Source of the DNA: a virus
Taxonomy: Duplodnaviria; Heunggongvirae; Uroviricota; Caudoviricetes
Length of the DNA: 39,032 bases
Virus record (IMG/VR): IMGVR_UViG_649989948_000008
Coordinates: 1 to 39,032 of that record
Strand: one strand, 5' to 3'
The position numbers and the translations under genes are program-made. The notes under the pieces were generated by a model. The model ran no database searches. It saw nothing but the letters and a program-made list of their open reading frames with translations, and was not told the origin of the DNA. Shown piece after piece: positions 18,585 through 22,024 of this stretch (its first letter is position 1; each line of letters opens with the position of its first letter).

Positions 18585-19820
18585 TTAACCAAATATTTTT
18601 TGAACAACTTCACGAGCCGCTTGTGCAGAAGCTGAAGGGAGTTTGTTAATGAAAGAACGCTCAATACCTGTCACAAAGTCGCCTCGCATCATTCCAATCT
18701 TGGCCGACAACAAAAGTTCACGAGGGCCAATTGGCTGACTAATGAGGTGTTCTTCGTATCCATCGCGAACGATACCGGCAAACTTAACCATCTTTTCAGC
18801 GTATTCATCCACGATGCCTGCATTTGTCAACATGTTGATCTCTGCGTCTTTGCTCATGTATTTCACATTCGAAACGATGCCAAAACGCGAAAAGTTCGCG
18901 GCGTTCTGGATGTTTGTACCCTGGTACAAGCCGGTTTCATCACCAGATCCGTTCGTGTTGCCAGTGCCAATGAAAGCAAACCGTTCATGCGGAGTAATGC
19001 GACGCCATTCTGGAGTTGCCTCTTTGATGACCAACGCTTCACCTTCCAGCACTGGCTGATACACGCCAAGAATTTGTGGAAACGCAAAGTCGTATTCATC
19101 CGCGAGGTAAACCCAGCCATGCTTCATTGCGAGCGCAAGCAAGCCAGGTTCGAAATACGTAGAGCCATCACGCGCCAGAATTTGCCCCGTAACATGTGCC
19201 TCTTCCATTGATGCTGTATGTTGGGCACGGATCAACGGACGATTGAGCAAAGCACATAGCTGTGTAGGCAATGACGATTTGCCTGTTCCTGCATGACCCC
19301 ACAAATAGCCAGGTATGCCAAGTTCAAGCATCATGAAAATATCTTTGATCAGTTCGAAGTCGCCATATACGTAGCCTTTCTTCACTTCGGGAACGAACTC
19401 TGGATACGGCGTATTGACGTTGACGCTAACCATGAGCGGCGTCCCACGTTTTGTTCCGAGTTCTTCCACCGTTACGTTTAGCAGTTCGTGAGCTGCGACC
19501 AGATCTGTCTTGTACTCAACTGTGCCTGTGTAGCCAGGGCTACTGGTCAAGCCAGAAGATTTGGCCATTTCGCTTTTTTGCTCGGCACGTTTAGCTTGAA
19601 TTGCATCAAGTGCCTTTTTCGATAGCGTTGGTTCATCTGGAAACTGCGTTGTGTACATTTTCAGTACGGTGTCAGGATCGGCATCTTTTACTGACTCAGG
19701 AATGCCCTCGCAATTACCATTGGCTACATGGGACTTAAAATAGTGAAATGATTTGCCGCACCACTTGCAAACAAGGTAATCAGAAGGATTTTTTTCATTT
19801 TGCAGTGCAGTAGTCGTCAT
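18585..19820 (-). CDS. MoxR/CobS-like AAA+ ATPase with N-terminal Cys cluster
   Basis: Walker A GHAGTGKSS and Walker B VYLADEYDF; N-terminal CKWCGKSFHYF...GNCEG. Confidence 0.6.
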   Translation of the reverse strand: MTTTALQNEKNPSDYLVCKWCGKSFHYFKSHVANGNCEGIPESVKDADPDTVLKMYTTQFPDEPTLSKKALDAIQAKRAEQKSEMAKSSGLTSSPGYTGTVEYKTDLVAAHELLNVTVEELGTKRGTPLMVSVNVNTPYPEFVPEVKKGYVYGDFELIKDIFMMLELGIPGYLWGHAGTGKSSLPTQLCALLNRPLIRAQHTASMEEAHVTGQILARDGSTYFEPGLLALAMKHGWVYLADEYDFAFPQILGVYQPVLEGEALVIKEATPEWRRITPHERFAFIGTGNTNGSGDETGLYQGTNIQNAANFSRFGIVSNVKYMSKDAEINMLTNAGIVDEYAEKMVKFAGIVRDGYEEHLISQPIGPRELLLSAKIGMMRGDFVTGIERSFINKLPSASAQAAREVVQKIFG

Positions 19821-19915
19821 GCGTTTTTCCTTTGTTCTCTAATGAGCGTTCAACTTCTTATATAAATATATCATCATCTATCGTAAGTGGTTACTTATCA
19901 TTAAGGCTGTTTTGT

Positions 19916-22024
19916 TCACTTTAAAATGATACGATATAGTTCAGTAACTACAGATGAACCAAGACTATCAACGCTCGTTACCAGGGCATGATTTGAGTAA
20001 AATCTCTCCGGTGCGTCAGTCATGATGCCAATTGCCATCAAATCAATATCAGTCTGCGTTTCAATTTGCTTCGCAACTGAACGCAAATGAGCGTCAAAAC
20101 CTCTCCCAACAGCCCACGGCGCGCCATCACTCAGAACAAGCATGATCTTCCTGTCCTCCATGCGACCGGAAAATAACGATGCAAGGCTGGCTATGCTTTC
20201 ACCATCCACGTTATTAAGAAGTGGGAATGTGTAGCCTACGCACCCCATACGTGAGCGAACTTCGCGAGAATTTGCTTTTTCATTCCAATTTTTGATGATA
20301 GGTAGCATTAAAGATTCAAAGCGAGAGAACTCATATTTGATAGCCTTAAGTTCTCCTGCTGCCATATGACTGCCAAATGTAGTGAAGCCGGTGATAATGT
20401 TGGGAACATTTATTCGATCAAGTGCATCGGCGATGGTATATGCACTTGCAAGAGCTAGTTTTATCGTTTCGCCACTCATTGAACCCGATAAATCAATCAC
20501 TTGTTGAACACAGGCGTTAACGGCTTTAGATTCTTCTTTTTTACGAAACACGCGATCATCATTCATTGTTAATCTGTAGATACTTGAACCATGAATGCGC
20601 CCCCGACGCTGGCCAGGTATAAACTGAACTCTGTTTCTGCTTGCTATTGCACGTTCCAGGTCTTTTGCCAGCGTCGACGAAACACCTGACGAAAGGTGCT
20701 TTTCAATATATTTGTCGAAGAGCTGGTTGCCTTCAGGAACGATGCGATAGCGGCTGATTGGATATCCTCCCAAATCAATATCGGAGAATGTTTTAATAAG
20801 CCGTTTGATATGGGCTTCTGCCTGATCAATCGAGCCGATGAAGTCGTATGAGCGATTGTATGGCCTGTATTCGCTTTTCGAGCTTTCTGTTAACTCGCTT
20901 TTAATCGTTTCGGATAGCGCATCTTCTGTCATGCCTCCGACTTCATCTTCCATGCTATCCAACTCCTCTAAAGCCTCTTCCAGACTCATTTTTGACGGAG
21001 TTGGGATATCTGAAGAGCCGTCTTCTGTCGTTTTTCTTTTTTCGTGGTCAGCGGGTAATGATTCTGACGCCGCGTTATCAGAAGCATCAGAATCTGATAC
21101 CTCTTTATCATTTTCTGTATCATCGAATATTGTTTCTGATGATTCAGAATTATCTGAATCATCACTGTCGTTGTTATCATGTTTGTACTTACTATGTGAT
21201 TCTGATTTGATAGATTTGTGATTATCTAACGCTGAGGGTGTCTCATGATCTTCGTTGTCTTCACTGTTTTCTCCAGAGGCATCCGTCTGGTCAGCGTCTG
21301 AAGGATCGGAAGTTTTTCCCGGAGCTGACTCCTTACCTTTGCTTTCACTTTCAGTGTCTTTGAGGATCTTAGCTATGGTCGCAGCCACCTTTACACAATC
21401 CTCGGTGCAAGACATGTTACGCACGGCCACATCGATACCATGTTCTTTTAATAATGAAATTGGTTTCTCAATGACAGGCCAATGTTCATCCATGAAATCT
21501 ACGAACGGTGCTTGGCCATCCCAGGCTCTTACAACCGGACAGAGAAAGAAGTTTAGAAAAAGCGCGCGCTGATCTTTGCCACAATAAGCAATAGCCTCTG
21601 AAGCCTTTGGTTTAAAGACTTTTTCGATTATAAGGCGCTGAGTTGCCATCAGATTACGTCTTGTTCCGTTAAAGACCTGACCCATTTTTCGCTCGATGAA
21701 CACGTCTTCTAAGGCATTCCATAGCGACCAGGAAGGAACGCGTCCTTTTTCTCTCATTTTGTTGGACACACGAATATCGGTAAACAAAATGTGAGCAACC
21801 TCATGATCGAGAAATCCGCGCACAGCATTCATCAATGCCGGTGTTGCGTTATCCGGGATTGATGGGATGTTTACGAGAATTGGCTCTCCATCATCGTTAT
21901 AGCGTACATAAGCGTCGTCCCCTCGTTCTGCAACAGGGATGTTTTTACCTGAAAGGAGAGCGACTACTCGTTTTACACTGTCACGGAAGTCCTGAACCTC
22001 TTTGATGGAACGTTTTTTAGACAT
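19916..22024 (-). CDS. CobT-like protein with C-terminal von Willebrand factor A domain and acidic Ser/Asp-rich central region
   Basis: MIDAS motif DLSGSMSG in the C-terminal domain; low-complexity acidic stretch DSDDSDNSESSETIFDDTENDKEVSDSDASD. Confidence 0.6.
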   Translation of the reverse strand: MSKKRSIKEVQDFRDSVKRVVALLSGKNIPVAERGDDAYVRYNDDGEPILVNIPSIPDNATPALMNAVRGFLDHEVAHILFTDIRVSNKMREKGRVPSWSLWNALEDVFIERKMGQVFNGTRRNLMATQRLIIEKVFKPKASEAIAYCGKDQRALFLNFFLCPVVRAWDGQAPFVDFMDEHWPVIEKPISLLKEHGIDVAVRNMSCTEDCVKVAATIAKILKDTESESKGKESAPGKTSDPSDADQTDASGENSEDNEDHETPSALDNHKSIKSESHSKYKHDNNDSDDSDNSESSETIFDDTENDKEVSDSDASDNAASESLPADHEKRKTTEDGSSDIPTPSKMSLEEALEELDSMEDEVGGMTEDALSETIKSELTESSKSEYRPYNRSYDFIGSIDQAEAHIKRLIKTFSDIDLGGYPISRYRIVPEGNQLFDKYIEKHLSSGVSSTLAKDLERAIASRNRVQFIPGQRRGRIHGSSIYRLTMNDDRVFRKKEESKAVNACVQQVIDLSGSMSGETIKLALASAYTIADALDRINVPNIITGFTTFGSHMAAGELKAIKYEFSRFESLMLPIIKNWNEKANSREVRSRMGCVGYTFPLLNNVDGESIASLASLFSGRMEDRKIMLVLSDGAPWAVGRGFDAHLRSVAKQIETQTDIDLMAIGIMTDAPERFYSNHALVTSVDSLGSSVVTELYRIILK

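Follow-up and report, generated by a model that had tools for sequence, protein, structure and literature searches.

Two-gene modules that combine a MoxR-class AAA+ ATPase with a metallopeptidase-von Willebrand factor A (vWA) protein have been described earlier in phages (Iyer et al. 2021, Viruses, PMC7824862), and genes labelled cobS and cobT, the names of the motor genes of cobaltochelatase, are widespread in tailed viruses (PMC8651126). The usual argument for phage cob genes is the supply of cobalamin for a class II ribonucleotide reductase (PMC5083919). In the cellular system, cryo-electron microscopy of the Brucella proteins placed a shaft segment of CobT inside the CobS ring, and the CobT N domain is reported to have an M48C-peptidase-like fold (bioRxiv 10.64898/2026.07.21.739949). 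Here we analyzed a gene pair of this kind in a 39,032-nucleotide stretch of tailed virus DNA (IMG/VR record IMGVR_UViG_649989948_000008, positions 1 to 39,032; referred to as the window). On the sequence evidence given below, its CobS-like ATPase and CobT-like adaptor are distant paralogues of CobS and CobT and not cobaltochelatase subunits. The reading we favor, with moderate confidence, is that the two proteins form a phage-type MoxR/vWA protein-remodelling machine that is expressed with the early replication genes and tied to the onset of replication.

The ATPase had been assigned to the MoxR/CobS type in an initial annotation made from the sequence alone, and this assignment was confirmed by the 411-aa open reading frame (ORF) on the minus strand (18585..19820), by an AAA_5 domain at residues 173-293 (Pfam, E 2e-15) and by the alignment of residues 142-411 with residues 39-315 of Brucella CobS (PDB 9ujv, E 1e-25). 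Walker A K181, Walker B D241/E242, sensor-1 N288, the arginine finger R312 and sensor-2 R367 were invariant among 91 homologues, while structure comparison identified NorQ and CbbQ as the nearest folds with template modelling (TM) scores of 0.85-0.87. As an AAA_5/CbbQ-type ATPase with all motifs intact and an adjoining gene for a vWA protein with a complete MIDAS (an adhesion site dependent on a metal ion), the protein belongs to the MoxR class. The part in common with cellular CobS comprises the large and small AAA+ subdomains (residues 141-411; 18588..19400, minus strand; the stretch aligned by TIGR01650). Cellular CobS proteins span 323-345 aa, and the phage ATPase is about 140 residues longer than these at the N-terminus.

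The adaptor is encoded by a minus-strand ORF of 702 codons (19916..22024) and comprises a zincin-like N domain, an acidic linker, a shaft and a vWA domain with MIDAS. It was matched by Pfam CobT at residues 9-294 (E 2e-27) and CobT_C at residues 492-701 (E 2e-82) as well as by Brucella CobT (E 3e-17), and its family extends to 5081 cluster representatives at E<=1e-3. The AlphaFold model, with a mean predicted local distance difference test (pLDDT) score of 85.6, begins with an N domain (residues 1-230) made up of helices and a three-stranded sheet, followed by a disordered region (residues 243-329), a hairpin and the vWA domain. The latter (19919..20515, minus strand) carries a complete MIDAS (D511, S513, S515, N605 and D633) with the sequence DLSGS at residues 511-515 (nt 20480-20494); D511, S513, S515, N605, D607 and D633 were invariant across the family, and the nearest solved folds were those of NorD and the MIDAS domain of midasin. 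The predicted 702-aa CobT-like protein with a C-terminal vWA domain and DLSGS MIDAS was thus recovered from both the Pfam matches and the invariant MIDAS residues. An acidic Ser/Asp-rich linker, also predicted, corresponds to the disordered Ser/Asp/Glu-rich residues 231-340 (21005..21334, minus strand), which have a net charge of -24 and pLDDT values below 50 over residues 243-323 (family median 130 aa, charge -39). The equivalent of the CobT shaft spans residues 466-503 (20516..20629, minus strand) and aligns with Q373-R413 of Brucella CobT. G471, G475, L482 and F493 of this segment were kept in an alignment of 119 relatives and in a 67-sequence alignment, with G475 invariant, while R491 was kept in the 67-sequence alignment only. 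By analogy with the cellular complex, the phage shaft segment would enter the ATPase pore.

The N domain (residues 1-230; 21335..22024, minus strand) contains the sequence HEVAH at residues 74-78 (nt 21791-21805), followed 24 residues further on by NALEDVFIER (residues 103-112). H74, E75 and H78 were kept in at least 90% of the 119 relatives and E111 was invariant, while E75, E106 and E111 were invariant in the 67-sequence subset. When the 150 best of the 5081 cluster representatives were examined for the HExxH part of this HExxH...NxxED motif, 144 were found to carry it. In the AlphaFold model the two motifs occupy consecutive long helices following the three-stranded sheet, which is the arrangement of a zincin motif, with an HExxH helix and a downstream Glu on the next helix. 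In contrast, the aligned site of cellular CobT contains no His (GDSMALR in Rhizobium, ADAFALR in Cereibacter and GDAAALQ in Pandoraea), although the downstream acidic helix is retained and hhalign places the site in phage and cellular CobT in the same register. From this comparison, cellular CobT resembles a zincin that has been inactivated, and the phage adaptor one that is still intact. The initial annotation had recognized the likeness of the adaptor to CobT but had missed the intact zincin motif.

No peptidase family emerged when the isolated N domain and 67 members of the family were scanned against Pfam, and Brucella CobT was not found when the phage N-domain profile was compared with PDB sequences. 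The best match of this profile among PDB sequences was the anti-CRISPR AcrIIA26 (9zq6_B, E 0.004) over a short acidic helix. The match spans the NxVEDxFIE helix at adaptor residues 97-107 (window region 21706-21736) and aligns E49/D50 of AcrIIA26, its Cas9-contact residues, with E106/D107. As a novel fold has been reported for AcrIIA26, the match is probably due to chance or convergence, and it was treated as chance.

In public records of phages and plasmids, the two genes carry cobalamin or porphyrin synthesis labels, as the initial annotation had correctly stated for phages. In this explanation the genes are auxiliary metabolic genes, the products of which join the CobN of the host and raise cobalamin levels, for example for a B12-dependent ribonucleotide reductase. 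It represents the standard annotation as well as a published proposal (PMC8651126; PMC5083919), and the AAA+, shaft and vWA parts of the two proteins are genuinely, if distantly, homologous to those of CobS and CobT. Both proteins, however, missed the curated NCBIfam equivalog cut-offs widely: the ATPase scored 86.6 bits against TIGR01650 (residues 141-411 only; cut-off 558.55) and the adaptor 70.1 bits against TIGR01651 (residues 296-696 only; cut-off 759.05), while CobS and CobT from a Rhizobium plasmid, included as controls, reached 651.9 and 1110.7 bits, respectively. The CobT N domain, which contacts CobN, was barely alignable with that of the phage adaptor (hhalign E 1e-3, 16% identity), and neither the HExxH motif nor the zinc finger described below was present in the true subunits examined. 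Neither cobN nor any other cob gene was found in the closely related complete genome of Escherichia phage Cyrano. The ribonucleotide reductase of this phage is of class Ia (NrdAB) and not B12-dependent, and the class II cobalamin argument therefore has no object here. To our knowledge, E. coli possesses neither CobN nor an aerobic corrin pathway. The order of the phage genes, which is the reverse of the cellular cobS-cobT arrangement, is a further argument against chelatase subunits. The doubt on cobalt chelation expressed in the initial annotation was therefore justified by the failed cut-offs, the lack of cob genes in Cyrano and its class Ia reductase, and we consider a contribution of the pair to cobalamin synthesis very improbable.

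To place the pair in its genetic context, we compared the surrounding sequence with known elements. About 8.1 kb around the pair exhibited 99% identity to E. coli plasmids of about 110 kb, 96-98% identity to the Escherichia phages Cyrano (97%), CMS-2020a and PhiR41_1, and about 79% identity to Salmonella phage SSU5. From the identities to the plasmids and the Cyrano group, the window is therefore assigned to an SSU5-like E. coli phage-plasmid, of which it constitutes a part. Genes for a Rep3-type initiator and a ParA-like protein adjoin a phage replication/recombination block of helicase, primase, ligase, dnaE, gp32-like single-stranded DNA-binding protein (SSB), exonuclease, RecA and SbcCD genes. 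Within this block the pair is followed downstream by a split dnaE and the gp32-like SSB, exonuclease and RecA genes and preceded upstream by the ligase, primase and helicase genes, in agreement with the replication gene block proposed earlier. The CobT-like and CobS-like genes are located at the head of a leftward early operon, the first gene of which is a 70-aa ORF (22123..22335, minus strand; phrog_2627 match). An integrase gene and a divergent helix-turn-helix (HTH) repressor-like gene (22586..22972, plus strand; weak Pfam HTH_19 match, putative repressor in the Cyrano annotation) lie just before the operon, and the divergent repressor-like layout was also seen in relatives. No terminator-like sites were found on the minus strand within the block, including the interval between the 70-aa ORF and the pair. 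With dN/dS values of 0.07 for the CobS-like and 0.19 for the CobT-like gene in comparison to Cyrano, both genes are under purifying selection.

Early-gene position by the lysogeny switch and directly upstream of dnaE suggests that the client of the machine is tied to the start of replication; it would be a protein that is matured, remodelled or removed as phage DNA replication begins. In the mechanism we propose, which is modelled on the solved CobST and NorQD complexes, six ATPase subunits would assemble into a ring and grip the shaft segment of the adaptor. The adaptor would hold the client between its MIDAS face and the zincin-like N domain, in the place taken by CobN in the chelatase, and the client would then be remodelled at the expense of ATP. 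In most lineages the client would probably also be cleaved via the HExxH...E site kept there, and the zinc finger of the ATPase would probably recruit the ring to a partner. The comparison with CobS/CobT, MoxR-vWA and midasin-type modules called for in the initial annotation was performed and produced matches to all three kinds. The chaperone or remodelling role left open there fits the NorQ/CbbQ folds of the ATPase as well as the NorD and midasin MIDAS folds of the vWA domain, while the role itself is one that we infer. Its authoring model had overlooked that both the MoxR plus peptidase-vWA pair (PMC7824862) and the spread of cobST (PMC8651126) were already in print.

The same early position adjoining the lysogeny switch would also suit a protease that is powered by ATP and eliminates a protein of the host, for instance a defence factor or a nucleoid protein, at an early stage of infection. 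A function in host takeover or anti-defence of this type would be in line with the conserved protease motif, the very acidic and possibly nucleic-acid-like linker, and the wide distribution of the pair in unrelated phages. PADLOC, however, detected no defence or anti-defence family except for a weak DrmE match (E 6e-4), the pair shows the high conservation of a core gene set whereas counter-defence genes evolve fast, and no experimental hint was found. We therefore regard such a role as distinctly unlikely.

Diverse members of the system were obtained by searching cluster representatives, by tblastn against phage records and by looking up contigs; a first search with the CobT-like protein and a scan of IMG/VR based on the CobS alignment yielded close relatives only. 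A match to Xanthomonas phage JGB6 was ignored, as the record is frameshifted. A recurrent gene order of CobT-like, CobS-like, in some cases a sigma-70-like gene, a GCFGS..C..C protein, dnaE, gp32, exonuclease and RecA was found in Rhizobium phage RHEph10, Pseudomonas phage nickie, Acinetobacter phage-plasmids, an Ectothiorhodospira prophage and metagenomic contigs of about 100 kb, with identities of 32-36% for CobT and 42-47% for CobS. In the podovirus ICP2 a divergent pair is located upstream of primase, helicase and a PolA-type polymerase, while the pair of the T4-like cyanophage Syn33 lies between gp46 and gp45/44/62. The Syn33 partner protein is annotated as 'peptidase' and features HEVGH, NVLEDARIEK, an acidic linker and DWSGS; it is separated from cobS by two small genes. 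The cyanophage 'DNA binding protein' encoded between the two genes corresponds to a DenV-like glycosylase and not to a zinc finger.

Gene position also bears on the proposal that the pair acts as a virion-assembly chaperone combined with a processing protease. This reading has been published for the same architecture in group 2.2 jumbo phages (PMC7824862) and has an analogy in the MoxR-vWA pair of the Acidianus two-tailed virus. No prohead protease is annotated in Cyrano, with only a hypothetical gene between its portal and capsid genes. The Cyrano structural genes, however, are located more than 15 kb from the pair, which resides at the head of the early replication operon, a position that was kept in all relatives examined. 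The T4-like cyanophages, as we take to be established, carry the pair on top of a T4-type morphogenesis set. Gene position thus does not favor virion assembly, and we view this function as unlikely.

A function as a chaperone for metal-cofactor insertion, similar to NorQ/NorD, CbbQ/CbbO or CoxD/CoxE, would account for NorQ/NorD and CbbQ being the nearest solved folds and for the metal-dependent polymerase adjoining the pair; possible clients include the PHP domain of DnaE, NrdB and SbcD. A CobS/CobT-like pair on the Caballeronia plasmid pNK83 (L099:5127-7843) exhibits the order S then T, lacks HExxH, and adjoins genes for a GTP-binding protein and an amidohydrolase instead of cob genes, a neighborhood that lends this reading some support and from which the plasmid pair may be a non-B12 metalloenzyme maturation paralogue. 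On the other hand, NorQ/NorD-type systems have no zincin site, which is kept here in the great majority of representatives as described above, and no single metalloenzyme is common to the SSU5-like, ICP2 and cyanophage contexts, with DnaE in one case and a PolA-type enzyme in another. The T4-like cyanophage context contains T4-type clamp and clamp-loader genes, and its polymerase presumably belongs to the T4-type replication set. Taken together, metal insertion appears to be an improbable function for the phage pair.

Closer examination of the N-terminal extension of the ATPase revealed a putative Ros/MucR-like zinc finger at residues 16-75 (19596..19775, minus strand), in which C18, C21 and H31 occupy ligand positions and C37 replaces the usual fourth His. 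The initial annotation had correctly reported a Cys cluster (C18, C21, H26, H31 and C37) here but did not recognize it as a probable finger of the Ros/MucR type. Among 20 homologues with 43-78% identity, C18 was invariant and C21, H26 and H31 nearly so, and C/C/H/H occupied the finger positions in 79 of 91 rows of an alignment that includes the window protein. The ligand pattern in the homologues is C-x2-C-x9-H-x4-H, and the region is modelled as a small folded domain (pLDDT 84-96). Pfam ROS_MUCR (PF05443) matched five of the 20 homologues (best E 1.5e-4), though not the window protein itself, while the finger-domain profile found Ros87 as its best PDB match (2jsp, E 0.002), in an alignment that brings the Cys and His ligands into register. 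The finger was absent from the cellular CobS proteins compared. Separately, the cobS gene of Syn33 (L094:4776-5849) encodes a protein without a zinc finger, the N-terminus of which, 'LGVSYATVCKRLESY', resembles an HTH by eye; its N-terminal ~100 residues produced no Pfam match below E 0.1.

Combining finger and zincin motif, the pair might be viewed as an ATP-driven, MIDAS-guided zincin protease-remodeller that is recruited by the finger to the replisome or DNA-bound proteins and matures or clears a protein as phage DNA replication sets in, with cellular CobS/CobT as a derived offshoot of this older machine in which the peptidase was inactivated and CobN became the client. We consider this more specific scenario rather doubtful.

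Several observations weigh against our favored reading of a protein-remodelling machine tied to replication onset or narrow its scope. At least five lineages (nickie, the Acinetobacter phage-plasmid, P0294, P0327 and P0351) no longer possess HExxH but retain the remaining system, and cleavage is therefore not a universal core activity. The lists from the adaptor structure search were filled by vWA matches, and the zincin fold of the N domain is predicted from its motif and the structural model. With respect to the zinc finger, two ligands were lost in seven of the 91 aligned ATPases, and in the enterobacterial branch the fourth ligand is a Cys following an insertion, which comprises 14-20 residues in the window. 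ICP2 and cyanophage ATPases have other N-termini without a finger. The net charge of the finger is -2 in the window (median of -1 among 91 homologues) and thus a basic DNA-binding surface is not present. DNA binding is doubtful because the finger is not basic, which weakens its value as a DNA-targeting mark, and a role in protein recruitment is equally plausible. The synteny inside one phage supergroup may reflect shared descent only. The site of the pair in T4-like cyanophages is a known variable region. Finally, the literature searched contained no genetics or biochemistry on any phage pair.

Other features of the window concern the gene following the pair and its replication genes. Between the ATPase gene and dnaE lies a 67-aa ORF with a GCFGS...C..C...C motif (18379..18582, minus strand; phrog_6337). 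The same Cys motif heads proteins of 167-226 aa at the equivalent position between the ATPase gene and dnaE in nickie, RHEph10, three metagenomic relatives and an Acinetobacter phage-plasmid (L003:10203-10745, L002:12451-12981, L090:11853-12365, L092:11239-11742, L096:10870-11439 and L100:10954-11634), of which the window version keeps the Cys-motif part only; no Pfam match was found for the GCFGS-motif protein. In several relatives, a sigma-70 region-2-like gene was observed right after the cobS-like gene (L090:11182-11856, L095:10137-10784, L096:10254-10877 and L002:11819-12454), which is absent from the E. coli window.

A gene for a free-standing HNH endonuclease interrupts dnaE in the window (14092-18404, minus strand) and divides it into two parts. 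Of these, the N part of 787 aa (16041-18404, minus strand) corresponds to residues 1-781 and the C part of 389 aa (14092-15261, minus strand) to residues 785-1166 of the intact 1168-aa Cyrano DnaE, with the 244-aa HNH ORF (15258-15992) located between them. An intein was rejected as the cause of the split, as the halves abut at 781/785, the HNH gene is free-standing and no intein signature was present. Plasmid records that share the HNH insertion list no dnaE, and the gene was therefore probably called a pseudogene there. The RecA-like gene (8776-11115, minus strand) encodes 779 aa and contains an intein with a LAGLIDADG endonuclease (Intein_splicing 73-486, LAGLIDADG_3 279-356 and RecA 484-703); RecA comprises about 338 aa in relatives, while the RecA of the Ectothiorhodospira prophage also bears an intein. 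An ORF with a LEM-3-like GIY-YIG nuclease domain (34962-35729, plus strand) is located on the strand opposite to its neighbors and is likely the third homing endonuclease of the window. Cyrano contains a HicAB toxin-antitoxin pair (L001:19976-20824) between dnaE and a UvsY-like gene, which is apparently missing at window position 13967-14091.

The element itself is known and annotated, and the spread of cobST (PMC8651126) and the MoxR/metallopeptidase-vWA reading (PMC7824862) have been published. In the literature searched we found no description of the Ros/MucR-like finger on the ATPase, no statement of the contrast between an intact phage and a lost cellular CobT zincin motif, and no mention of the formal failure in the equivalog test or of the conserved gene with the Cys motif that precedes dnaE. 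In T4-like cyanophages, genes with a cobS/cobT or 'porphyrin biosynthesis' label belong to the core; they are also common in many other tailed phages as well as in phage-plasmids of clinical enterobacteria, and are routinely tallied as B12 auxiliary metabolic genes in viromes. If they do not encode chelatase subunits, these metabolic inferences are wrong and the genes constitute a widespread phage machine. The intact phage versus lost cellular zincin site also bears on the origin of the B12 chelatase motor. The relative PhiR41_1 is recorded on E. coli K-12 MG1655, and with the pair present in a host that we take to be CobN-less, its function is therefore testable by ordinary genetics; the main value of the system lies in E. 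coli being tractable for such tests.

Among described systems, the cobaltochelatase motor CobS/CobT (CobNST, EC 6.6.1.2; Brucella 9ujv and 9uka) resembles the phage pair in AAA+ subfamily and gene adjacency, and CobT and the phage adaptor are built alike from N domain, disordered acidic linker, shaft segment and vWA-MIDAS domain. The phage proteins differ in scoring about one tenth of the equivalog cut-offs, in having no CobN partner, in a reversed gene order (cobT-like then cobS-like, while the cellular order is cobS then cobT), in keeping the HExxH that was lost in the three cellular CobT proteins examined, and in the extra finger and ~140 N-terminal residues. The Ros/MucR finger (PF05443; Ros87, 2jsp) aligns in its C-x2-C-x9-H-x4-H spacing and the subsequent Y...P.AP...S..A stretch, while the phage domain, which has no basic character, forms a fusion with an AAA+ ATPase. 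NorQ/NorD and CbbQ/CbbO provided the best structural matches of both phage proteins, a likeness in fold scores only; these systems mature known metalloenzymes (cNOR and Rubisco, respectively), their adaptors have no zincin domain and their ATPases no finger. Rea1/midasin, which acts in the removal of ribosome assembly factors, combines six fused AAA+ modules in a single giant polypeptide, whereas the phage ATPase and MIDAS protein are separate and the system is viral. A further correspondence is in architecture: the window encodes a vWA protein with an N-terminal HExxH metallopeptidase-like domain next to a MoxR gene, the same two-gene organization as the pairs described by Iyer et al., found as the core genes 'cobS' and 'peptidase' in T4-like cyanophages. 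The cyanophage proteins are very divergent from the window pair (blastp E 4e-4 for the N domain), their ATPase has no finger, and the function proposed by Iyer et al. was virion assembly, which gains no support from gene position here.

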